Source: Yuukianura sp. NJ FZ-2021
Lineage: Eukaryota
DNA: 64,000 nucleotides
Assembly (NCBI GenBank): GCA_046563655.1
Contig: CM102287.1
Span: 496,001-560,000 of the forward strand
Reading direction: 5' to 3'
Part shown: positions 51,001-64,000 of the stretch, piece after piece
Numbering within the stretch: the stretch's first letter is position 1
How the letters are laid out: each line of letters begins with the position of its first letter
Translations under genes and position numbers: made by a program
Notes under the pieces: model-generated
What the model was told of the DNA's origin: nothing
Databases searched by the model: none
Seen by the model: only the letters and a program-made list of their open reading frames with translations

Positions 51001-52565
51001 CTCCGACGGCAATGGAACTTCAGGGGATCCCATTATTACATTTTCTAAATCAAAATCGAACATTCAGCATTATTTGTTATTTTGATTAAAATTGTTGGAA
51101 AGACTTTTTTGTCATACTACCACCTTGCACTTCCAATAAAGCACACCTGAATAACTGGTGTTCAATATTAATCTGGAATTATATTTTAGCCCAACTTCAC
51201 TATGCAACAAGTGCATAAATCTAACTGTCATTTTGGTATCAACTAATGTGGGAACTATACAACAAAGTTTTAAACATACTGAAAAATGGAATTTATGCCT
51301 TGTTGTCGCTTATAACCATCTTCATGGAACGCATCTAATACCGGTACACTTTGTCGTAGTGCATCAACGACTATTACACACGGTGAACCACTTGTTGTCA
51401 GCCTTCATCTTTGAGCACAAAGGAGAAGTGCCGGTGAAATGACAAGCTCGCCATCACTACAGATACCTGCCAGTACTCATTTTGACACTACGAATCACAA
51501 TGACTCCGACTACAATGGAACTTCAGGGGATCCCATTATTACATTTTCTAAATCAAAATCGAACATTCAGCATTATTTGTTATTTTTATTAAAATTTTTA
51601 GGAAATACTTTTTTATGTCATACTACCACCTTGCACTTCCAATAAAGCACACCTGAATAACTGGTGTTCAACAATAATCTGGAATTATATTTTAGCCCAA
51701 CTCCACTATGCAACAAGTGCATAAATCTAACTGTCATTTTGGTATAAACTAATGTGGGAACTATACAACGAAGTTTTAAACATACTGAAAAGTGGACTTT
51801 ATGCCTTGTTATCGCTTATAACCATCCTCAAGTAACGCATCTAATACCGGTCCACTTTGTCGTAGTGCATCAACGACTATTACACACGGTGAACCACTTG
51901 TTGTCAGCCTTCATCTTTGAGCACAAAGGAGAAGTGCCGGTGAAATGACAAGCTCGCCCTCACTACAGATACCTGCCAGTACTCATTTTGACACTACGAA
52001 TCACAATGACTCCGACGGCAATGGAACTTCAGGGGATCCCATTATTACATTTTCTAAATCAAAATCGAACATTCAGCATTATTTGTTATTTTGATTAAAA
52101 TTTTTAGGAAATACTTTTTTATGTCATACTACCACCTTGCACTTCCAATAAAGCACACCTGAATAACTGGTGTTCAACAATAATCTGGAATTATATTTTA
52201 GCCCAACTCCACTATGCAACAAGTGCATAAATCTAACTGTCATTTTGGTATAAACTAATGTGGGAACTATACAACGAAGTTTTAAACATACTGAAAAGTG
52301 GAATTTATGCCTTGTTATCGCTTATAACCATCTTCAAATAACGCATCTAATACCGGTCCACTTTGTCGTAGTGCATCAACGACTATTACACACGGTGAAC
52401 CACTTGTTGTCAGCCTTCATTTTTGAGCACAAAGGAGAAGTGCCGGTGAAATGACAAGCTCGCCCTCACTACAGATACCAACCAGTACTCATTTTGACAC
52501 GATGAATCACAATGACTCCGACGGCAATGGAACTTCAGGGGTTCCCATTATTACATTTTCTACAT
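1..52565. repeat. Tandem satellite array, 506-bp unit, about 104 copies in window (open at left edge)
   Basis: The same sequence recurs every 506 bp (ORF-track starts 154, 660, 1166 ... 52260). Copies differ by a few recurrent SNPs and rare 1-4 bp indels. The last unit is cut after ...ttacattttctacat at 52565. Confidence 0.99.
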
Positions 52566-52936
52566 TGAAACCTCTCCCATCTCTCACTCTAACTATCATC
52601 GTATCATCATCTAATCTACATTCTCCTACGCTATCAATGGCGATAGAGAAATAATCAATCAATCTAACGATAATCCATAATCATAAATATCCAATAAAAA
52701 AAAGAGAAAGAACGGAATACCTATTCCTCATGAAGTTGCTCCCTAACTGATCTATGTTAGAACGATGACCTACTAGTCTAGCACTAGTCCTGGGGTTTCC
52801 TAAGTTCTTGGATTGGTTGGTGGAAGTCGGTAGGAATGAAAGTGAAAGTAGCTACACTTCAATGCTCTTTAAACATTTGTGGGCATAACCCAGCAGGAGG
52901 ACCTGAGTACTTTTACTAGTAAAGTGCTGTGGCTTT

Positions 52937-52945
52937 ACATACCTG
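52937..52945 (-). promoter_or_regulatory. Putative major splice donor in LTR (CAG|GTATGT)
   Basis: Near-consensus donor on the element strand about 270 nt downstream of the putative initiator, with no ATG in between. Confidence 0.55.
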
Positions 52946-53135
52946 AGGTTTTGGCCTGGCCTTGGCGCTACCCCTTACTGATGTTTGTATTGACCTCTCG
53001 ACCTCTCCTTGGGTTGGCTGGAGACTTTGGTTGGTGGTGGCACTCCCCGGGTTGACCCACGGTGGCTGGAGCGTCTCGTTGGAAGTTAGAAGTTGAAAGA
53101 AGTGAAGAAAAGAAATAGAAGTGAAAGTAGTTGCT

Positions 53136-53141
53136 TTTAAT
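53136..53141 (-). terminator. Putative polyadenylation signal ATTAAA in LTR
   Basis: Minus-strand ATTAAA followed ~15 nt later by a long T/C-rich tract (cttctatttcttttcttcacttctttc), downstream of the putative start site as expected for an R region. Confidence 0.5.
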
Positions 53142-53208
53142 TTAGACTTAAGGGCCAGGCTGGCCGAGTGCCTACTAGAAGTTAAGAGTTAAGTAAAAGC
53201 TACCGGAC

Positions 53209-53247
53209 AACTGACCAAGAGGTCGGACTACCGATCCTCTATTTATC
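53209..53247 (-). promoter_or_regulatory. Putative LTR core promoter: TATA-like GATAAATA plus initiator TCAGTT
   Basis: Minus-strand GATAAATA at 53247-53240 and TCAGTT at 53214-53209, about 33 nt apart. TCAGTY is the arthropod-type Inr consensus. Confidence 0.55.
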
Positions 53248-53677
53248 CCTAAAGATTAGACGATCTGAACATGCAAGAACATGATCTTCGAACTCATTAA
53301 CTAATAAACATGTCAAATTAATCTACACTTTGTAACTACAAAGTTTCAAAATCATCAAGTTTTCTAGTCTTTTTCTTATCTATGTTCTTACCAAAAAGAC
53401 ATAAACTTTGTCTTAGAATTTGAATTAGTAATGCTAACTAAGTGAAACTTAAGTCACGTCAGATTACTCATGACTTGACTTTTACTGTTGATTGCGAAAA
53501 GTCATAAACTTTTCGCAGTTGATAAGGGTGATCAGTCAGCACCCTGGGGTCGTCTCCCTCCTGATTAGGGAACACGCGAAAAAGGAATGAACTAATTCAT
53601 TCCCTTCTCCTGTGCTCCAGTGAGAAATCTGCCAATCAATACTTTAAAATTGATTGACAGCTTTCTCCACTGTTACA

Positions 53678-53691
53678 TCTTCCCCAACTTA
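53678..53691 (-). promoter_or_regulatory. Polypurine tract (plus-strand primer site)
   Basis: Minus-strand TAAGTTGGGGAAGA directly adjoining the TGTAACA start of the LTR. Confidence 0.85.
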
Positions 53692-53996
53692 GTCATGAGC
53701 CGTCCTCGGCGAATCCAAGTGTAACGAACTTAACTATCCTAACCTAACAAAACTTTTGTGACAAAGTCACGATTTCCGCGTGCCGTGATAACCTAGTAGC
53801 TAAGACATGATAAGCAGAGGTCACAAAGTGCGTTATCCTGAAGTGCCTAACTCATCCTATCAGTCTAGGACATTCTACAAATAAATTTACTACGTCTGCT
53901 GTCTCAAGCCCTCTCTACTAGGGCATATCTCTGTCATTAACCGTTACATGTACCGCAACAAGATGTACTACATTAAATTACTGAAGTCGTCAACAT

Positions 53997-55565
53997 TCAA
54001 TCCCAAGGATTCCGCTCTGGAGAGGGGATGGGGTGTCGGTTGTGCCAAGGGGTACTGGAAGGCGGAGGGGGTGTGTCACCTGGAGGGTGTAGATCTTCCC
54101 TTGTACCTCGTCTGTTTGCGCTCGGCGCTGCTTCCGGTCGACTCGATCGGGAACTCTTCCAAAGAAGGATTCCGGTCATCTGTTTCTGCATCGTGGCCAT
54201 CTGCTGCTCCAAAATTCGGACTCGCTCACGTAGCAGGGAACGTTCATCTCGATCGTGTTCTCTGGCCTCTCGGTGTCTCTGGTTCCGCTCTCGCCTGGCC
54301 TCACGCTTCTCATGGCGTTCCTGAGTCTTTGGTGCTTTGACCTGGACAACCTCCGGAATGAATTCTTGTATACGACGCTTCCCAACGGCAAGACAACTTT
54401 TTGACGAATGAAGAGGGTTTGGGACCATTGACGTAACTGGCACCTCTTTAGCTTTGGATGACGGTGGGCGAATAATGGCGTCGTTGAAGTCAAACTTGAT
54501 CTCGTACTCATGATACAAGGATGGCATGATACGTTCATATGCATCCGGCGGGATGCCTTCGGGTTTCGGGAGGCGACGAAATCTGCGCAGTACTCCTCGG
54601 ACAAACTCATCATTACTGCATCGCTTCCATACTTCAATATCGGCTTCAAACAAACTGATAGGGCAATCAAGATTTCGAGCTATGGTCACTACCGTTGTAT
54701 GAAGACATTGCAATCTGGTGGAGCATCCAAGATAAGTTGATTCAAATGCAGGGCGTGGGACGGAGAGAGCCACGTCTTTTTCTGTCTCATGTAGCCACCG
54801 GTCAATGATTCGCGTTGTCTGGTTCATGAAGTCTCGTCGTAGGGAGTCAGTAATGCCTAGCCAAACGTTCAGTAATTGCTCTGCAAAATCGGTCATCAGC
54901 TGGAAGTGTTCTATTACATGAGAGCTGAACTGAGTGTCACAAACGGTTTGGTAGTCTACCACTGCTACGTTTTCATCAATGTACTGCTGGCACAAGGCTG
55001 CATAACTGAAGGATGTAGTTGAGTCAGAGATTCCCACGAGTGGAAGTTTAGCGATATCCACTATACCCGCTGCTGTTATGCCAAAATCTCTAAGTAATGC
55101 CTTAAACTGACGTTCCCCTTGATACGTAATCTTCGCAATTTCTGAGGATTCCATCAAAATTCTTAAAGGCTCCTGCAGCTGCTTGGCGGTCTCTTTGGCG
55201 TCAATGACAAAACCTCGCTCTGGAGTCATGATTGCGATATGGGTGGTTTCCCCAAGATATGTCTGTTCGTTCTGGAACGCATAGATCACCATCGGTTTCC
55301 GATCATAGATCTTCCTGATGTTAGCCAGGAGTGTGGTTTCCTCCCTGATTATCTCGGGCAAGATCTGTGGTCTGTCTGATCTCAACGGCAAGTGTAACAG
55401 CTTATTACGCAAAGTAGAGCTGGCCCTCATCTCCATCATCTCTTTCTTTAGCTTGGGTTGAATGACCTCAATGTCGATATTTTTCTTATGTCTAATTTTA
55501 TAATATTCTGTAGGTGTTGTAAATAGCCTAATCTTATGCTGCTTTACATTCAGTATCTTTTGCAT
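53997..55565 (-). CDS. Accessory ORF F, 522 aa: Rrp6/RNase D-like (DEDDy-fold) exonuclease-like domain lacking catalytic residues, degenerate HRDC-like segment, basic region plus coiled coil, Pro-rich tail
   Basis: Motifs TYLGETTHIAIMTPERGFVID, LMESSEIAKITYQGERQFKALLRDFGI, IVDIAKL, SYAALCQQY and TIARNLD are colinear with Rrp6/RNase D motifs as recalled from memory. The ATG is preceded by tatttcaattccag. Confidence 0.75.
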   Translation of the reverse strand: MQKILNVKQHKIRLFTTPTEYYKIRHKKNIDIEVIQPKLKKEMMEMRASSTLRNKLLHLPLRSDRPQILPEIIREETTLLANIRKIYDRKPMVIYAFQNEQTYLGETTHIAIMTPERGFVIDAKETAKQLQEPLRILMESSEIAKITYQGERQFKALLRDFGITAAGIVDIAKLPLVGISDSTTSFSYAALCQQYIDENVAVVDYQTVCDTQFSSHVIEHFQLMTDFAEQLLNVWLGITDSLRRDFMNQTTRIIDRWLHETEKDVALSVPRPAFESTYLGCSTRLQCLHTTVVTIARNLDCPISLFEADIEVWKRCSNDEFVRGVLRRFRRLPKPEGIPPDAYERIMPSLYHEYEIKFDFNDAIIRPPSSKAKEVPVTSMVPNPLHSSKSCLAVGKRRIQEFIPEVVQVKAPKTQERHEKREARRERNQRHREAREHDRDERSLLRERVRILEQQMATMQKQMTGILLWKSSRSSRPEAAPSANRRGTREDLHPPGDTPPPPSSTPWHNRHPIPSPERNPWD

Positions 55566-55581
55566 TCTGGAATTGAAATAT

Positions 55582-56199
55582 TTACTTAGATTTAGTATTT
55601 ACACTTGCATTTGCACTTACAGCACTACTAGGTCCTGCTGCTGGTGACTCTTCTAACAATTTCAGCTTTCGGAGCACGTTAAACTTTAACGTTATGGCAT
55701 TAAATAATTCTGCGTGCACGAATAAATTTGTGCAAGTGTGAGTACGCTCCATGATATGCCACAACCCTACGATACTGTCGTATGGCTTCTTTGTGGTAAG
55801 ATCAATACAAACGTGTCCTGGATACATATAGAAATATTGAGGAGGATAAAAGCAAAATTGTTCTACTACCTCCATAATATCTTCTAAGCGCAGTGTTAAG
55901 AAGAAATCTACTGAGACTGCTACTTGTGACCGAAATTCGGTTTTCTGCCGTGCTATTTCTTCGAGCACTTCTATCAAGCTCCCTTTTGCTCGTGCACTCA
56001 CGACGTCTTCAATCGTCATGAAGCAAACGTGTCTTATTACACGTCCCATGGTTGGAATAATTTTAACATTTTTCAAAATTGTTCCAAAAGAATACAGGAG
56101 CCCGTCTCCTGACCCGTCTCCCTGAATCTGTCCTCTATTTCTGATGGACACTAAGCTTCGCACTCCGCGAATGCTTGGTACAATTTCCTGTACTTCCAC
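55582..56199 (-). CDS. Accessory ORF E, unknown function (start uncertain: frame open from 56250, first in-frame ATG at 56049)
   Basis: Frame of more than 200 codons on the element strand, tightly packed between ORFs D and F; no family recognised. Confidence 0.6.
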   Translation of the reverse strand: MEVQEIVPSIRGVRSLVSIRNRGQIQGDGSGDGLLYSFGTILKNVKIIPTMGRVIRHVCFMTIEDVVSARAKGSLIEVLEEIARQKTEFRSQVAVSVDFFLTLRLEDIMEVVEQFCFYPPQYFYMYPGHVCIDLTTKKPYDSIVGLWHIMERTHTCTNLFVHAELFNAITLKFNVLRKLKLLEESPAAGPSSAVSANASVNTKSK

Positions 56200-56340
56200 A
56201 ACTTCTGGTTGTGCAAATTTTTCACATATAAGTTGTGCGAATCTATCTAATTAATGGAAAAGCATATTGTGACATCCGTCTATATTCTAAAAATGACGTG
56301 TCGTTCATCTTGGTGAGTCTTCTTGATGACTCGGAATCTG

Positions 56341-57273
56341 CTATTCGCTTTCGTCTGTGTGATCGGACGATTCGGAGCTATTGGAGCTGCTACTAAAGAA
56401 CGGATCGCTGTTCCTGTGATAGTAAGATCGAAATTCTGCGTCATCATCCCATCCCATTTTTAGATATCTCATATTTCTCAAATGACTGTAATGGGCTTGA
56501 CGAGATTTCAACGATTTCTCGCGTTCTCTCCATATTACATTATGATAGTACATAAAGAAATCAATTTCCGAAGGTCTACCCCCATTGTACATCAAAATTG
56601 TGTGAACTTCTATCATTCGAGTCTTTAAGAATTCGGCTTCCCCGAACAAGATAGCATCCGCGGCTTCATGCGTTCTAACAATTCTACCTTTGTAAACTGG
56701 TACGTGCTGATATCGTTGTGCCAAATGGATCTTTTCATCTATATTTAGGGAAATGTAAACTCCGATGTTCAGAGCAAGATAAACCCCATCTACGTTATCG
56801 ACAATTTGTGTATGGATGGGATGACTGTGTTTTCTCATTCCCTTCGAAAACCTGTATACAGCCTCATGATGTGAGTATGGTAAAAGATAACTATCTTGAA
56901 CTAGTCCTGTCTTCGGATAATACCACATTTGAAATTCCTTGATCTTACCCTCAATGTAGTGGAGGCTATATTGCATATGTTTCCACATGGGTTGCTCTAT
57001 CTCTGGGAAACGGATTGATAACATACTCATTTCAATAGGGCTAAAACAACGAGCCTGACTGACTCTATGTTCCAATTCGCGTTGTTTCTCAACTCTCGAT
57101 TTCGTTGACGCTAGAATTGACTCGATATCTTTTACGTCTTGTAGGTACCCCTTACTAGGTTTGTACTCGCTCGCGGCGATCTCTTTCCAATGTTGTATCC
57201 ACTCAATAGTGGAGGGATCTCGGAATCTGTGCATCTGACTTTTCCAGTAATCGGGAGCTTGTCTCCTTGCCAT
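56341..57273 (-). CDS. Accessory ORF D, 310 aa, unknown function, Ser/acidic C-terminal tail
   Basis: Intact ATG-to-stop ORF. The ATG lies 2 nt after the acceptor-like tttaacttttag. No family recognised. Confidence 0.75.
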   Translation of the reverse strand: MARRQAPDYWKSQMHRFRDPSTIEWIQHWKEIAASEYKPSKGYLQDVKDIESILASTKSRVEKQRELEHRVSQARCFSPIEMSMLSIRFPEIEQPMWKHMQYSLHYIEGKIKEFQMWYYPKTGLVQDSYLLPYSHHEAVYRFSKGMRKHSHPIHTQIVDNVDGVYLALNIGVYISLNIDEKIHLAQRYQHVPVYKGRIVRTHEAADAILFGEAEFLKTRMIEVHTILMYNGGRPSEIDFFMYYHNVIWREREKSLKSRQAHYSHLRNMRYLKMGWDDDAEFRSYYHRNSDPFFSSSSNSSESSDHTDESE

Positions 57274-57308
57274 ATCTAAAAGTTAAATTATAATTACGGG
57301 AAAATCAT

Positions 57309-57322
57309 TCTTCCCCAACTTA
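57309..57322 (-). promoter_or_regulatory. Internal exact copy of the polypurine tract
   Basis: tcttccccaactta is identical (14/14) to 53678-53691. Confidence 0.7.
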
Positions 57323-57798
57323 TTTTCCTTTTGTTATACTTTCGGCATTTCTAATGTCGGTCCTGAGAGTTCGCTAAATGCAGTTTTTCTGAAGTTTCTG
57401 ACATTTATGACTCTTAAATTACTCTTTTTCCCATTGACTGTGATCTCTTAGTGACCTCATCACACTATCGCAAGCGAAATGTCCAGAACTTATTATAATA
57501 GAAAATCCTAAAAGAAGAAACGGCTATCCTGATAGAATTCCAGAGGTGTTGGTGATGTCAATGCGACTCCGACCATCCAAATCTCCGGACCTAAATTCTC
57601 CTGACTTTTCAACTTTCCCACAATTACGTTAACGTACAGCGTTAAGTTTTACGTTAACTTTTTCTGGAATTAATAAAAAAAAATCCAAAGCTTCTGACAT
57701 GGATGACTTATATCCTAAATAATGTGATTATGAAATCGGCGATGGTAGAGCTGAGTCAAATTTGAACGAGGAGGTTTGTTTACGACCTGCTCGTATGC

Positions 57799-60171
57799 TT
57801 AAACACGAGTATCTACGCTGGTAGATTCTTGAGCTGGTTCTTCCAACTCACTCACAGCGCTCTTAATCAAGTCCACAATTTTGTCAGCTTGTGGAGAATG
57901 CAAAATGATTTTCAGAGGTGGACGCCCTTGTTCAGCGTCTAAATTAAACTGAACCCTCGTTCCTACGAATGGTTCGGAAATATCCATTTTTCGCACTTTA
58001 TCTCGTTCCTCTCTCTGTTTCCTAAGTTGGTTCCTTTTACGCCAGTAAAACCAGGTGAGTCCTCCCAAAAGTACGAGTAATAAAACTAACCACATGACGA
58101 CGGTGAACATGTTAATAGCATGATGCAATTCTACGCCTGTGGGGTTTGCAACGGCTCCTCCTATCTGTCCTGCAAAGGGAACTCCAAAGACCATTCCCCC
58201 GTTTGCCATGAACTGTTTGTACAAGAGTAGCGCAACGCCTACCGAGAGTACTATGTTCCAAATTATCAACGCTGTATTTGTTGATGGGGCCGTTATTTGA
58301 ATTAATTTCGGAACCATCATGGACTTCAAATGACTCATTTCCGTTAGGTTCAACCTTGGAGAACCCAAATCCCAAGTCTCGTTAAATATCGTTTTCAAGT
58401 CGGGATACAACTTCTTCTCAGAGTTTCTGCCAAATCAAGTAGTGTTCAACAACACATCCATTCGTGCCATCATTGCCGGAATTACCAGATTTACTCGAGG
58501 TCTTTCTGCCAAACCGATAGGACATGGATACGGTGGTTTAATAGGCATTCTCCCCGGCAACTGCAACTCACAGTCGCATGCCAACTTAACTTCTATGCTT
58601 CCTATACCATGTGGTGGTGGCTCCAGTGGAAAATCAATATCATCATCTCTATTATGACATCTTATGTTCATGGTTTCGGTAGCCCCTGTAACTGCAAAAG
58701 TATGATGATCTAGTTGTGAAATCGTTAACTCGCTCTTGTCTGCCAAACATTCGAAAAGACAATACTCATTTAATTCCGCTAGTGATGCACCTCTCAGCAA
58801 CTTTTGGGCACACATGTAACCAGTGAGTGGATCCGAATTAAATTGAGGGATCAAACACAAGCCTGACTCTGGTTTACATTGTTGTAATTGAGTTCCCTGA
58901 ATTGTGACCAACGTATCGTTACTTAATGCCAGATATGTGGGTGCATGTTGCAGAATGCACGTACTACCCTTGTAACTGAATGGTATGTTAGTCATTGCGT
59001 ACAATTTCCAGTTTGCGGCCTTACGCCTGATTGGAATTCTCAATCTGAAAATCGTTCGTCCTTCCGTAGTAAAGGCACAATCAGCGATCTTTAATTTGTA
59101 ATATCTCGAAATTTCAGATGGTGGGACAACTAACTCATATCCATCGTTTTGCAATTGTTTTGACAATTCCCCCAAATCTGCAATCAATCGTTTGAATGGA
59201 ATTGCTAAGATAGAAATGGTTCCTGCTCTACAGTGATCTTGGAGATCTTTAAATCTCATAATCTCCATGATCGAATTAAGGTGTTCATAAATCTGGACAA
59301 AAGTCATTTGATGTGAAAGTAACTCTTTTTCCAACCGTTTCACATCTTTTGTCAGAGCATCTTCTTCTCCCTGTAATTCTTGTTGTTCGCGCATCGTTAT
59401 TTCAATCTGTCGGTGGACAGAAGCAAAAATGCGAGATGCATTGCCCTGAAACATTTCCAACCCTCCTTTTATGGTCATAAGATTCCGATTTGTTTCCACA
59501 ACTGAATCTTTCATGACAGAAAGAAACAGTTCCATCTTTTCCGAGTTCATGCTAATGTCACTTAAATCTCTTTTAGAAGCCACGCCACAACAGAATGACC
59601 ACCAGTCCCCAATTAAGGTTAAAGGGTTGAATGCCTGAAAATCAAATTCTCTTTTTCCCCGATTCGAAGCCTTGGCCTTGGATGTCTGCTTAGTTCGATT
59701 TAAACGAGCACGATTCCTTGCCTGCTGAATGGCAATCGGTATCTCGTCCAATGATATCAACGGCTTTTCTTTGACAATTTCGTTTCGGGTAGGGCCCATG
59801 TTCTCGTTGGACTTACCTTGATCTTCGCTTATCCCAAACGTACCTGATTCGTCCCTCATTAAGGAATCGGCTATGATATTTCCCAAAATTTCCGATACAT
59901 GTCCGATGGGCCTACGCATTGTGTTTGGGAAAATGCACGTTCCATCCACTTCCGCACATCTATAGGCCTCGAATACGTTTTTCTCAAATTCTCTGAATGA
60001 CACTTGTATGTCGTAGATCAATGGGACCGACGCGGTATACAATTCCGTGTTCCGGATTTCCCGGATCGTTGTTCCGGTTGTCACTCGAACCTCTGTCGGA
60101 GTGATCTGATATGCCACTCCCTTGGCAATAAATCCGATCGTCATCAACGCACTGATCAGTGTGCACGCCAT
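57799..60171 (-). CDS. env: Envelope (class I fusion) glycoprotein, 790 codons with one in-frame TGA at 58437-58435
   Basis: Signal peptide MACTLISALMTIGFIAKGVA, furin site RGKR (59661-59650), hydrophobic fusion-peptide-like FNPLTLIGDWWSFCCGV, heptad-repeat region and Cys-rich ectodomain. The track ORFs 58435-60195 and 57799-58410 are in the same frame, and the second carries the transmembrane segments. Confidence 0.85.
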
Positions 60172-60180
60172 TTTATTTTT

Positions 60181-60206
60181 CTGTACAAGAAGCAAGAAGG
60201 AAAATT
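60181..60206 (-). promoter_or_regulatory. env splice acceptor
   Basis: Minus-strand aattttccttcttgcttcttgtacag|aaaaataaaATG: a long polypyrimidine tract and CAG 9 nt before the signal-peptide ATG. Confidence 0.7.
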
Positions 60207-60255
60207 ATTATGCTAACCTACCTACCTATTGCTAGTGGTTCCTAACACTAAACCA

Positions 60256-61023
60256 CTAGTCAAAATCTCTGAGACTTCGATCTGTTTGACAAATGTATTC
60301 TGCTTTTTCTTCGTCCATATAAAATCCAAAACCTTGAAAAATTCGAAACAAATCATTCCGAATCTGTTGTCGTCTTGGGGACAACGTATCCCAATAAGCC
60401 TGATATCGTATTTGAAACACGTAAGTAAATGGCTTCCATTTGCTTTCTGGTTCTCCCAGTTCGCGTAAAACTTTGGCCAATCGACTGTATGTGAACATGG
60501 TGAAAACATTATGAGGCTTCTTGACACATTTGACGCCAATAAGCCTATCCGAAATTAGTGTTCGCTGTGGAATAACATTCCATTCAGCATCTGCGATTAA
60601 GTCGACCCAACAGTCCACGCTGATATTGATAATTGCACTAGGTTTTAACGTGAATGGACAGTGAATTAAGCGCACGATGTCCGTCATTTCAACATGTTTC
60701 CATTTCATAGGTACTTGAGCCAAGTACCACAACTTCTCGTGTCTAGCTGTTTCCAGTTCATCTACTACATTTACAGTGGGCCGATCTGGGTATCGCTTTC
60801 CACAAAATTCAAACTGCTCGACTATGGAACACCTTGTGTCCATTGTTTTTCTAATAATTAAGGCTATTTCGTTACTAAGTTCGGGAAATGCTTCAGCTAC
60901 ATTGTTTGCGTCTAAAGCGTTGAGTTCTTTTATGATGATTTCTAGGACGTCGAATCCCAAAGCAGTGAAGTGGAGTGGAGTGTATGCAAGCGGCTTCATT
61001 GTAGTCTCGCTTCTCCCTTCCAT
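60256..61023 (-). CDS. Accessory ORF C, 255 aa, divergent paralog of ORFs A and B, F-box-like N-terminus
   Basis: Shares HEKLWYLAQVP, DIVRLIHCPF, YWDTLSPRRQQIR and EYIC blocks with A and B. N-terminal FTALGFDVLEIIIKELNALDA. First ATG at 61023. Confidence 0.8.
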   Translation of the reverse strand: MEGRSETTMKPLAYTPLHFTALGFDVLEIIIKELNALDANNVAEAFPELSNEIALIIRKTMDTRCSIVEQFEFCGKRYPDRPTVNVVDELETARHEKLWYLAQVPMKWKHVEMTDIVRLIHCPFTLKPSAIINISVDCWVDLIADAEWNVIPQRTLISDRLIGVKCVKKPHNVFTMFTYSRLAKVLRELGEPESKWKPFTYVFQIRYQAYWDTLSPRRQQIRNDLFRIFQGFGFYMDEEKAEYICQTDRSLRDFD

Positions 61024-61149
61024 TTCCTTAAATATTATAACCTCTGATATATGCCTTAATATCAAAATCCTAGTTCAAATATTTATTCAACTACTCAAGT
61101 CCTCCTACTAAGGCTACTTGCAGCTATTATGTCTAATGACTTTCAGTTA

Positions 61150-61920
61150 TTACTGATTGTATCTATCAGAAAACCTACACAGAAATTCTACATACTCGTC
61201 TGTAACATCCCTACCATTCTCGGTACATCTTCTCTTATATACAACACGCATACGCCTCTGTCTGAAGCTTAGTGTACTCAGGTACTTATCGTACTCACTT
61301 TTGTATCTGACTAACAATTCTTGTCGCACGGACTCTTTTCCGTTTGTTTCCTCTATGGCGGTTACAATTCGCATAAAGTTAAATGGATACGTCGTTATGA
61401 CATCTTTACGAAAGCTTACTGTCTTGGGCGGCGTACGCCCATACGGTAGATCTGCATGGATGTGGTGTCCTTGAGTTTCAACTAACTCTATGAGCTCGCT
61501 AGCTAGCAAACTTCTAAATGTTTCTACTTTACATACGAAGCCGCAATTCAAAATTCTAAATACATCCATACAACTGAATGGGGCAAATTCTATTGGCAGC
61601 TGTGCCAAGTACCATCGTTTCTCATGATTACAAACACGCATTTCAATTTCACAGTGAAAGGCGTTCGCACTTCCAAACAAATTAAATGTCTCGATTAATT
61701 CATCCCAATTAGTCATGACCTTTTCTATCTCTTTAGCAAATAAGGTTATGATCCTGGGATATGCATGTAAAGCATCGTTGAACTTTGACGCATCTAAAAC
61801 GCTTAGCTTTCTAGCTATACTGATTAGAGGTAGATCGTCCAGTGACGAAATGTTCCTTTGGATGTGAAGACGGCGTTTCTTAGCCGGTTCTCCCTCTGTT
61901 TCTGTGTGCTTCAATTCCAT
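61150..61920 (-). CDS. Accessory ORF B, 256 aa, paralog of A and C, NLS-like PAKKRRL and F-box-like N-terminus
   Basis: LDDLPLISIARKLSVLDASKF, HEKRWYLAQLPI, YPFNF, YKSEYDKYLSTLSFRQRRMR and DEYVEFLC. First ATG at 61920. Confidence 0.85.
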   Translation of the reverse strand: MELKHTETEGEPAKKRRLHIQRNISSLDDLPLISIARKLSVLDASKFNDALHAYPRIITLFAKEIEKVMTNWDELIETFNLFGSANAFHCEIEMRVCNHEKRWYLAQLPIEFAPFSCMDVFRILNCGFVCKVETFRSLLASELIELVETQGHHIHADLPYGRTPPKTVSFRKDVITTYPFNFMRIVTAIEETNGKESVRQELLVRYKSEYDKYLSTLSFRQRRMRVVYKRRCTENGRDVTDEYVEFLCRFSDRYNQ

Positions 61921-61986
61921 AGTTATTCCTACCAAAATTTTGTATTTCTATTCTCAGTTAAATCAGCTTAATGACCACGTTATGTT

Positions 61987-62802
61987 TTACTCAAGACCTC
62001 CTGCTGAGGCTGGGATTTGAAAATCGTAAAGTAGATTTTTCGCATCTGAAAGCTGACACACAAATTCGACATATTCGTCGGAAACATTCCTTTGGTTTTC
62101 GGCACATTCTCTCTTCACAGTCTCCCGCATTTGTCTTTGCCTGGGGCTGAGAGAGTTTAAGTATTTTTCGTATTCACTCTTATAATTCTGCAATAACTGC
62201 TGGTATACTGATTCATCCCCTTTCATCTCTCTCACCACTTGTGCCAATTTGCAGAAATTAAACGGGTAATCCTGAAAATGCTGTTTATGAAATCTGACTG
62301 ACCTAGGGGTTCGTGATCTAAAGCATGCTCCTGCGGAGACTTCTACCTTCAAAGTGTTTACGATTTCTATAAGGTCGTCAGCAGACAAAGCCTTAAAAAC
62401 CTCTGCATCACACCTGAACCCACAGTGTAGGATTCTGAATAAGTCGATATGTCTAACGGGTGTGTGATCAATCGGTATCTGAGACATGTACCATCTCTTC
62501 TCGTGAGATCCGTATTTTTGTTCCGTCTCGAACTGATCAGGGGGTACGAGGCTGAGTAATTCAAATTTTTCTATTACTGTATCCCAGTTGGCCATTGCCC
62601 TATCGATCTCTGTTTCTACTAGTTCTACTACTCTTGGGTACCCTTGAACAGCTTCCTTGAACTTGGAGGCGTCCATTACGCACAGCTTTCTTATAATGCT
62701 GATGAGTGGCAAATCACTCAGTGACGTAAGTTCTCTTTGGATCTGAAGATGGCTTTCCTTTGCCGGTCCGTGTTTGGACACTTCTGTGTTCTTCGAATCC
62801 AT
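61987..62802 (-). CDS. Accessory ORF A, 271 aa, paralog of B and C, F-box-like N-terminus
   Basis: LSDLPLISIIRKLCVMDASKF, HEKRWYMSQIPI, YPFNF, YKSEYEKYLNSLSPRQRQMR and DEYVEFVC. First ATG at 62802. Confidence 0.85.
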   Translation of the reverse strand: MDSKNTEVSKHGPAKESHLQIQRELTSLSDLPLISIIRKLCVMDASKFKEAVQGYPRVVELVETEIDRAMANWDTVIEKFELLSLVPPDQFETEQKYGSHEKRWYMSQIPIDHTPVRHIDLFRILHCGFRCDAEVFKALSADDLIEIVNTLKVEVSAGACFRSRTPRSVRFHKQHFQDYPFNFCKLAQVVREMKGDESVYQQLLQNYKSEYEKYLNSLSPRQRQMRETVKRECAENQRNVSDEYVEFVCQLSDAKNLLYDFQIPASAGGLE

Positions 62803-62929: not shown

Positions 62930-64000
62930 TTAGTCTAGGAATCTAACTGGTTTTCGGACTACTCGGCCGTACCTTGTCGTAACTACATTTTTCTCTTCGA
63001 CTTTTACTTCTTTATCTTTTAACTCTGCTTGTCTAATCTCTTCATCTTCAGAAGATTCTAAGAACTCTTCAGATTCTACATCAGAGGATTCCACGTCCTC
63101 TTCCAATTCATCGGTTTCCAACTCATTGGGAACATCCGACTCCAACGGTATTTCAAAATTCAAAATATTCGTCAACTCATTTGAAACTGCTCTAGCATTA
63201 TCCTTGCTGATCGAAATTCCTTTCAACTCTTCGGCTAAGTCATCAGAATTTTCTTGGGTGGGTCTATTACAACCGTCTTCCCCAACTTGATCTGCCGCTA
63301 CTCCTGGAGCGGAAAGTCCCTCACAAATGTGAAGTAAATCATCTTCAACATAACGCTTCAAATTTTCAATATGTACTCTAACTGGGACATCATCCGAAGC
63401 CGCACCAACAGGTGAGCAATGATACGCTAAGGGTGAGACCTTCTGTACAACAACATATGGACCTTTATACCGCATGGCCAATTTCCGAGTTCGGCCAGCT
63501 TTGACAACTTTAACTTTAATGAGAACCTTATCTCCAATGTCATATTCCAACGGGAGACGTTTGGGATCGAACAAACCAGCTTGCTTTTTCTGTGCTTTTT
63601 GAATACCAACCCGAGCCAATTCTCTGGCCTCGTGCATTTTACGAATCCGTGATGGGATGTCTTCCCATTGTCGCGATGTATCCAACGCAACGTCAAGAGG
63701 ATGGAACGGATGGCGTCCATACATGATATAATAGCTGCTAAACCCCGTACTCTCTTTGTGAACCGCGGTATTTAGTGCAAAAACAGCAGAACCTAAATAC
63801 CGATCCCAGTCCCTTTGACTCTGCAGCACATAATTAGATAAAATTTCTTCGATACTACGGTTACTTCGTTCAACTAGTCCATTGGTACGACTATGATAAG
63901 GTGTGGAATACAAGTTCACAGTTCCAATCAAAGAATTGAACTGTTTAAAGAAAGATGATCGGAACGTACTAGCATTATCCGTCTGAATTGATTTAAACAC
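62930..64000 (-). CDS. pol: Pol polyprotein C-terminus: Ty3/gypsy integrase core end, GPY/F module, acidic tail (5' truncated by window)
   Basis: IQTDN...YSTPYHSRTNGLVERSN with exactly 35 residues between D and E. Also WDRYL, TGFSSYYIMYGR, YKGPYVV, VHIENLKRY and terminal TRYGRVVRKPVRF. Confidence 0.97.
   Translation of the reverse strand: MFKSIQTDNASTFRSSFFKQFNSLIGTVNLYSTPYHSRTNGLVERSNRSIEEILSNYVLQSQRDWDRYLGSAVFALNTAVHKESTGFSSYYIMYGRHPFHPLDVALDTSRQWEDIPSRIRKMHEARELARVGIQKAQKKQAGLFDPKRLPLEYDIGDKVLIKVKVVKAGRTRKLAMRYKGPYVVVQKVSPLAYHCSPVGAASDDVPVRVHIENLKRYVEDDLLHICEGLSAPGVAADQVGEDGCNRPTQENSDDLAEELKGISISKDNARAVSNELTNILNFEIPLESDVPNELETDELEEDVESSDVESEEFLESSEDEEIRQAELKDKEVKVEEKNVVTTRYGRVVRKPVRFLD

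Follow-up and report, generated by a model that had tools for sequence, protein, structure and literature searches.

Genes at the locus and the A to D family

The window analyzed here is a stretch of 64,000 nucleotides from Yuukianura sp. NJ FZ-2021 (GenBank assembly GCA_046563655.1, contig CM102287.1, positions 496,001 to 560,000 of the forward strand). Its last part is occupied by an errantivirus-type Ty3/gypsy endogenous retrovirus, of which the window contains the 3' two-thirds and which is much richer in genes than the gag-pol-env pattern. Three consecutive genes, A, B and C, are located between pol and env of this element, and a fourth related gene, D, is located beyond env. As judged from the sequence comparisons presented below, the products of these genes form a real and previously undescribed family of retroviral accessory proteins. 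The positions of the four genes, all of which are on the minus strand, are:

61987..62802, minus strand: paralog A, 271 amino acids (aa), intact open reading frame (ORF)
61150..61920, minus strand: paralog B, 256 aa, intact ORF
60256..61023, minus strand: paralog C, 255 aa, intact ORF, the most diverged of the three, with the LP dipeptide replaced
56341..57273, minus strand: paralog D, 310 aa, a distant family member, downstream of env and directly upstream of a dUTPase remnant

A first-pass annotation of the locus had described A, B and C as a triplet of diverged paralogs that arose by two successive duplications and were retained as intact frames. Several lines of evidence agree with this description. 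Firstly, alignment confirmed the three ORFs, together with all of the motifs attributed to them (HEK[RL]WY..Q.P, D..R...C.F, Y...LS.R....R and E[FY].C) and the two N-terminal strings that had been singled out as resembling an F-box. Secondly, A and B are closer to each other (48% identity over 256 aa, BLASTP E 1e-89) than A is to C (26% identity over 220 aa, E 2e-23), and the phylogenetic tree groups A with B at a support of 85/89, and A, B and C together at 99/97. Thirdly, when the 2547-nt region containing the triplet was shuffled 1000 times, the longest ORF reached a maximum of 189 codons (median 74) and none of the 1000 shuffles contained one of 255 codons; the chance of finding 255 open codons at the composition of this region is about 1.6e-8. 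Finally, the proportion of synonymous differences (pS) between A and B is 0.80, which means that these sites are saturated, and pS ranges from 0.72 to 0.81 across the comparisons, versus a proportion of replacement differences (pN) between A and B of 0.33. Saturation of the synonymous sites combined with a much lower replacement divergence shows that the duplications are old and that the copies have been kept under constraint.

The view that the element contains a triplet needs to be extended in one respect: three paralogs indeed lie between pol and env, but the family within the element has four members, because D is located beyond env. Comparison of a profile of the family with D using hhalign gave a probability of 78.8% and an E-value of 1.7e-5 over 199 columns, and D also matches P0002, a metagenomic homolog described below, with a BLASTP E-value of 3e-4. 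In the tree, D groups with P0002 and a second metagenomic homolog, P0003, against A, B and C, at a support of 99/97. Altogether, the four copies share between 14 and 48% identity.

The relatives outside this genome are few. An exhaustive HMMER search of 1.84e9 representative proteins gave three matches at E<=1e-3, two of which, P0002 (285 aa, E 2e-4) and P0003 (233 aa, E 2.5e-4), align end to end with the family and have motifs in common with A, B and C. The third, P0001, was dropped as a relative; it is a repetitive protein of 1338 aa that matches profile positions 203-235 only, in 20 stretches. A word-indexed protein search with A as the query yielded no match among 400 candidates, and the same type of search with the profile of five sequences retrieved P0003 as the sole match among 3578 candidates. 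Using the P0002/P0003 alignment, the genes encoding these two proteins were found on two short metagenome contigs, L001 and L002. On both contigs the gene that follows the homolog encodes a dUTPase (PF00692, E 9.5e-38 and 8.2e-40), and an exonuclease-like ORF comes next, as follows:

L001 929-1981: dUTPase ORF, 350 aa, fused to a C-terminal domain
L001 1927-2940: exonuclease-like ORF (E 5e-24 against the 522-aa ORF of the window)
L002 803-1225: dUTPase ORF
L002 1231-2604: exonuclease-like ORF (E 1e-30 against the 522-aa ORF of the window)

On L002, the N-terminal helix of the homolog (..LRELINF..-like) is located within positions 1-160 in another frame than the rest, which points to a frameshift or a sequencing error near the start.

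A comparable arrangement is present downstream of env in the window:

56050..56340, minus strand: decayed tail of a dUTPase, in which the final conserved blocks can still be recognized, with four in-frame stops upstream
55582..56049, minus strand: o155, an ORF of 155 aa, counterpart of the C-terminal domain that is fused to the dUTPase in L001
53997..55565, minus strand: exonuclease-like ORF of 522 aa with an Rrp6/RNase D-type (DEDDy) fold (PF01612, E 5.6e-6)

The dUTPase remnant was recognized by eye in the translation, by comparison with the dUTPase ORFs of L001 and L002, which are intact, and o155 shares 35% identity over 99 aa (E 1e-20) with residues 198-296 of the 350-aa dUTPase ORF of L001. 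D is the positional counterpart of P0002 and P0003, because it is located directly upstream of the decayed dUTPase tail, which in turn is followed by o155. By these comparisons, a family member, a dUTPase with its C-terminal domain and a protein with an exonuclease fold make up, in this order, a conserved accessory module, and the triplet between pol and env is a secondary expansion of the first of these genes.

The genomic neighborhoods also bear on the possibility that A to D are structural or assembly proteins, either matrix- or tegument-like or acting as an env-associated chaperone, whose multiplication has no adaptive meaning. The fact that the triplet adjoins env is in line with such a role, as is the lack of an enzymatic motif and of membership in a known family. 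On the metagenome contigs, however, the homologs adjoin the dUTPase and the exonuclease-like gene, and there is no env between them. Furthermore, the proteins contain no signal peptide and no hydrophobic segment, and four copies at 14-48% identity are rarely kept in the case of structural proteins. We therefore regard a structural role as very unlikely.

The closest match of the exonuclease-like ORF in profile searches against the PDB is Rrp6/EXOSC10 (E 9e-8), and the positions corresponding to the D.E of motif ExoI and the D of motif ExoII of Rrp6 are aligned to non-acidic residues. The PDB profile matches also include Drosophila Egalitarian (E 0.004), which we take to be an inactive, RNA-binding version of the exonuclease fold. 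On the basis of these matches, the 522-aa protein may be an RNA-binding pseudo-enzyme. Searches with the alignment of the exonuclease-like proteins yielded no match in any of the 43 stretches from viral contigs, in any of the 126 from genome contigs, or among the 8000 proteins scored in the word-indexed protein search.

The carrier element, its expression and its state

The genes that flank the triplet, and the end of the element, are located as follows:

62930..64000, minus strand: 3' part of pol, comprising the end of the integrase core, an SH3-like domain and, at the C-terminus, an acidic tail; the ORF continues past the end of the window
58435..60171, minus strand: ORF of 578 aa for the ectodomain of env, a class I fusion protein (baculovirus F / errantivirus type); a signal-like segment is present at the N-terminus
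57799..58338, minus strand: continuation of env, an ORF of 179 aa with hydrophobic anchor segments, in the same frame as the ectodomain ORF
52560..53996, minus strand: non-coding 3' end of the element, abutting a satellite array and presumably containing the polypurine tract and the 3' long terminal repeat (LTR)

The placement of the triplet between pol and env, as had been proposed, is borne out by both neighbors. Upstream, the best match of the pol ORF to sequences in the PDB corresponds to residues 1236-1424 of Ty3 Gag-Pol, which is the integrase region (E 2.6e-7), followed by the integrases of foamy virus, human T-lymphotropic virus and human immunodeficiency virus; the ORF also matches PF24626 (SH3_Tf2-1) with an E-value of 8.6e-7 and 29.4 bits, slightly below the cut-off of 30. 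Downstream, env matches PF12259 (Baculo_F) with an E-value of 9.4e-8 and 31.5 bits, which exceeds the cut-off of 24.1. The carrier thus has two features of an errantivirus-type element, a Ty3/gypsy-type integrase directly upstream of the triplet and a baculovirus-F-type env downstream of pol. The 5' half of the element, including the 5' LTR, is located outside the window, which ends within the integrase.

From about position 52,560 to the end of the window all long ORFs are on the minus strand. Seven of these, which follow one another at positions 55582-62802, share one frame on this strand: A, B, C, env, the anchor part of env, D and o155. Treating the two parts of env as a single gene leaves six genes in one frame, an arrangement with a chance probability of about 0.4%. 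Read-through or an alternative genetic code as the explanation for the shared frame was ruled out, because the gaps contain in-frame stops, numbering 4, 7 and 5, and all three kinds (TAA, TAG and TGA) occur among them.

How the individual genes could be expressed is suggested by candidate 3' splice acceptors, i.e. an AG that follows a pyrimidine-rich or T-rich run, located within 0-33 nt upstream of each ATG. The distance between the candidate acceptor and the ATG is 16 nt for A, 8 nt for B, 20 nt for C, 2 nt for D and 1 nt for the exonuclease-like ORF, and 0 nt for the exonuclease-like ORF of L001. In the case of env, a run of about 20 pyrimidines is followed by CAG, 9 nt before the ATG. Such a pattern would be expected from alternative splicing, and each gene is probably expressed from its own spliced subgenomic mRNA. 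In addition, the motif ATACAAAATTT..AG upstream of the ATG is common to A and B, and the duplication therefore included the leader.

The provirus in the window is one of many copies. Contigs assembled from three DNA runs, all derived from one sample, cover the whole stretch with summed word depths in the hundreds. Many of these contigs are 90-99% alike, and therefore the element is a multi-copy family; the provirus analyzed here is partly decayed. Some copies differ in their organization: in certain copies 844 nt at 55518-56363, which contain o155 and the dUTPase remnant, are swapped for 37 different letters, and 76 nt between env and D (57643-57720) are swapped for 96 different letters. Contigs that differ by about 15% from the exonuclease-like gene pass at 54782-54792 into (CCTAA)n / (TTAGG)n, the telomere repeat typical of arthropods, showing that a related copy is interrupted or capped by telomere-type repeats.

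The decay observed raises the question of whether A to D are merely passenger ORFs that happen to be open by luck in one dead provirus copy. Env is indeed interrupted in this copy by one in-frame stop in 58339-58434, which separates the ectodomain ORF from the anchor ORF, the dUTPase is present as a remnant, and a contig of one of the runs shows that C carries a 4-nt insertion, at 60781, in another copy. Against this stand the outcome of the shuffling, in which an ORF of at least 255 codons occurred in 0 of the 1000 cases, the replacement divergence that is far below the saturated synonymous divergence, and the presence of homologs having the same length and motifs on unrelated metagenome contigs. 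Together, these results make luck an extremely unlikely explanation for the open frames.

The remainder of the window, from base 1 to about 52,560, consists of a satellite array with a unit of 506 bp, whose periodicity ends at about 52,555-52,600. A reference stretch of 300 nt recurs 104 times, every 506 bp, and is about 97-100% identical in the rows shown. The GC skew of the array is strong and constant, about -0.17. It should be noted that this satellite escaped Tandem Repeats Finder, for which the longest period was 500. The provirus either abuts the satellite array or was inserted at its edge.

Possible functions of the family

A model of A was generated with AlphaFold2 from the alignment of five sequences (mean predicted local distance difference test score, pLDDT, of 70.4; predicted template modelling score, pTM, of 0.61). 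According to this model, A would be composed of a disordered leader (residues 1-27), a three-helix module that contains the LP dipeptide (about 28-77, with predicted helices at residues 33-41, 45-53 and 56-77), an alpha/beta domain (80-177) and a helical bundle (178-260), with the C-terminal bundle being the well-predicted part. A comparable modular build is proposed for each protein of the family. When the whole model was compared with the PDB using Foldseek, no match at E<=1e-3 was obtained (best E 0.13), and F-box proteins were absent among the matches listed. The alpha/beta middle domain gave no fold match among those listed, which were filled by the C-terminal bundle. The invariant H100/E101 together with C249 were inspected as a possible H..E..C catalytic triad, and this candidate was rejected; no protease or hydrolase family or fold was matched, and C249 is not kept in D.

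Receptors of the FBXO type are built from a small N-terminal helical docking module followed by a larger, variable body. Viral proteins that engage different or fast-evolving partners are typically retained as several diverged copies, examples being Vpr and Vpx and the F-box families of poxviruses and giant viruses. Because the predicted layout of the family is FBXO-like, and because four copies have been kept at 14-48% identity, we favor the view that A to D may be adaptors directed against host proteins. As a very divergent F-box, the N-terminal module would attach each protein to the machinery of the host, most likely to Skp1 of the Skp1-cullin-F-box (SCF) ubiquitin ligase, and the diversified C-terminal two-thirds of each paralog would bind a different host protein, thereby marking the target for removal. 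The retention of four diverged copies would be expected for antagonists of several, or fast-changing, host factors, and fits poorly with the idea of one regulator or of a structural protein. Both the docking on Skp1 and the degradation of the target are inferred steps. We consider an F-box-like adaptor function to be the most likely single mechanism, and put it forward as a tentative proposal whose probability is well below even. Alternatively, the family might consist of stoichiometric antagonists that act on host factors independently of a ligase, for instance by tying up or inhibiting components of a pathway for restriction or for small RNAs; in that case the N-terminal helices would be a part of the fold or a dimerization element. 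We judge such a ligase-independent action to be rather unlikely.

The F-box consensus is characterized by an LP dipeptide, a hydrophobic heptad-like spacing and a tryptophan in helix 3. L..LP, the start of the F-box pattern to which the first-pass annotation had likened the N-termini, is present in A, B and P0002, and P0002 has the best fit to the F-box spacing, with L..LP followed by the hydrophobic positions. The fold matches of the N-terminal module are weak and tied; they include segments of cyclin F and Cdc4, which we take to be the F-box segments of these proteins, and also MAX2. In the Foldseek comparison with the PDB, MAX2 (in complex with ASK1) was one of the three matches, at an E-value of 9.4. 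The fold search against BFVD gave no match at E<=1e-3; the 50 matches listed, all with E>0.07, include three giant-virus F-box proteins and three polerovirus P0/silencing-suppressor proteins (E 0.15-0.57), the P0 or "RNA silencing suppressor" models being at ranks 5, 31 and 46 with a TMq of 0.15-0.18. In a language-model search with residues 22-98, F-box clusters occupied ranks 1-3 (0.82, 0.78 and 0.76), and nine of the ten best named matches belonged to the same family or clan; with the whole protein, an F-box cluster appeared at rank 13.

Several results weigh against this resemblance reflecting a genuine F-box. First, in a Pfam search at E<=10, the N-terminal 80 residues of A, B and C gave no match to an F-box profile (0 of 3). 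Likewise, no Pfam F-box (PF00646 / PF12937) was detected in the whole A, B, C and D proteins at E<=0.1, or in P0002 and P0003 at E<=10 (0 of 2), with the qualification that the HMMER filters discard most matches above about 0.1, so that very weak F-box similarity could slip past hmmscan. D gave no Pfam family at all in the hmmscan of the whole protein. Second, searches with sequence profiles against the PDB at E<=10, which gave 5 and 7 matches, retrieved no F-box protein. Third, C and D lack the LP dipeptide, and no member has a tryptophan about 26 residues past the proline, where that of helix 3 in an F-box would be expected. Fourth, all Foldseek E-values are above 0.07, with TM-scores of 0.1-0.2, and the N-terminal module modelled alone, from 4 sequences, reached a pLDDT of 65 and a pTM of 0.36, a modest confidence. 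Fifth, the language-model scores are below 0.9 and hence in the range that the tool treats as leads only; according to the tool, a score of 0.8 is attained by shuffled proteins in one third of cases, and scores for parts of proteins are uncalibrated. Finally, the weak F-box signals are not independent of each other, because all of them rest on the same short motif. Because no F-box profile was matched, membership in the F-box family is not established, and the F-box reading is neither shown nor refuted.

The same three-helix module can be read in another way. It could be a helix-turn-helix or SANT-like element, and A to D could be regulators that bind nucleic acids, equivalent to Tat, Tas, Rev or Rex of complex retroviruses. 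According to this possibility, the viral RNA or promoter would be bound by a conserved arginine-rich helix (L[ST]..Q...R.....[KR], at about 218-236 of A), which would thereby control the transcription, splicing or export of the many subgenomic mRNAs required by an element so rich in genes. Hmmscan of the family members, however, revealed no Pfam DNA- or RNA-binding family, and the fold matches to regulators are no stronger than those to F-boxes. In addition, the language-model features favor F-box clusters over helix-turn-helix clusters, and a regulator that acts on one genome would not readily account for four diverged paralogs. A regulatory role is, in our view, unlikely.

If the adaptor reading is combined with the possible properties of the exonuclease-like protein, a more elaborate scheme can be envisaged, in which the element would be a "complex" errantivirus, an endogenous retrovirus of invertebrates equipped with a counter-defence module of its own. 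As divergent F-box-like receptors, A to D would hand host silencing or restriction proteins, for example Argonaute or Piwi-clade proteins, to SCF for destruction, as polerovirus P0 does with AGO1, and the catalytically dead Rrp6/Egalitarian-like protein would bind RNA and protect or route the viral transcript. Taken as a whole, this scheme is quite unlikely; were it true, Ty3/gypsy elements would gain their first accessory system of the Vif or P0 type. The docking of the N-terminal module on Skp1, if true, would in itself provide a testable case of a retroelement attacking host defence via the ubiquitin system.

Comparison with known systems

Viral F-box proteins that serve as SCF receptors include polerovirus P0, nanovirus Clink, baculovirus LEF-7, and the F-box proteins of poxviruses and giant viruses. 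Like these receptors, members of the A to D family are predicted to possess an N-terminal module of about 45 residues and three helices, with an L..LP start in A and B, that is followed by a variable domain. The sizes are also comparable to those of polerovirus P0, which is 253-265 aa in BFVD versus 255-271 aa for A, B and C. On the other hand, and unlike the known receptors, the family has no F-box profile match, the TM-scores to P0 and viral F-box models are 0.15-0.19, and the carrier is a retroelement. Hmmscan also gave no Pfam match of A to D to P0.

A second comparison is with Vif, Vpr and Vpx of lentiviruses. These small accessory genes are located between pol and env, Vpr and Vpx are related by duplication, and their products are cullin-ligase adaptors that act against restriction factors. 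The position between pol and env is shared by A, B and C. The differences are that no family member has sequence or Pfam similarity to Vif or Vpr, and that lentiviruses are orthoretroviruses, whereas the carrier of A to D is a Ty3/gypsy element with an F-type env. Moreover, the ligases used by Vif, Vpr and Vpx are those of Cul5 and Cul4, not SCF.

The neighbors of the family have parallels in other invertebrate elements. Env-like genes, a dUTPase and an ORF for a DEDDy-type exonuclease have been captured, as modular additions, by LTR retrotransposons of bdelloid rotifers and by Terminons (Rodriguez et al. 2017, PMC5408684; Arkhipova and Yushenova 2019, PMC6431247), and, going by the portions of these papers used here, the element in the window contains the same kinds of neighbor genes. 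In the rotifer elements, as far as described in the same portions, the dUTPase is located inside pol and the DEDDy motif is largely kept, as DEED (PMC5408684), whereas the element in the window has its dUTPase as a gene of its own further downstream, and its exonuclease fold carries other residues at the acidic positions. The portions used describe no counterpart of the A to D family for the rotifer elements (PMC5408684, PMC6431247). Among the papers listed by a full-text literature search, none reports F-box-like or multi-copy accessory genes for LTR retroelements. The family is new, while the kinds of genes to which it belongs, additional ORFs of retroviruses from invertebrates and perhaps viral adaptors for ligases, are already known.

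Insect-type endogenous retroviruses are textbook examples of the gag-pol-env organization, and they are the main targets of the somatic PIWI-interacting RNA (piRNA) pathway. To our knowledge, no host-directed accessory genes are known for these viruses. A recent survey (Chary and Hayashi, eLife 2026, PMC13524379) has reported that Ty3/gypsy elements carrying an F-type env occur widely among metazoans. The element in the window resembles these errantiviruses in that a Ty3-type integrase is followed by a baculovirus-F-type env, and in being present in multiple copies in the genome. It differs from them in its gene content: errantiviruses are described as gag-pol-env, in the part of the survey on which this comparison is based, whereas the element in the window has 2.76 kb and three genes from pol to env, and four more ORFs after env. 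Within that same part, F-box, accessory genes and an exonuclease are not mentioned, and a maximum of 500 nt (insects) or 1000 nt (others) was allowed between pol and env (PMC13524379). An element with the spacing of 2.76 kb observed here would therefore have been missed, and on this account surveys that are limited to a pol-env spacing of 0.5-1 kb will overlook such elements. The presence of four diverged accessory copies, a dUTPase and an exonuclease-fold gene shows that Ty3/gypsy retroviruses can match the gene complexity of lentiviruses and foamy viruses.

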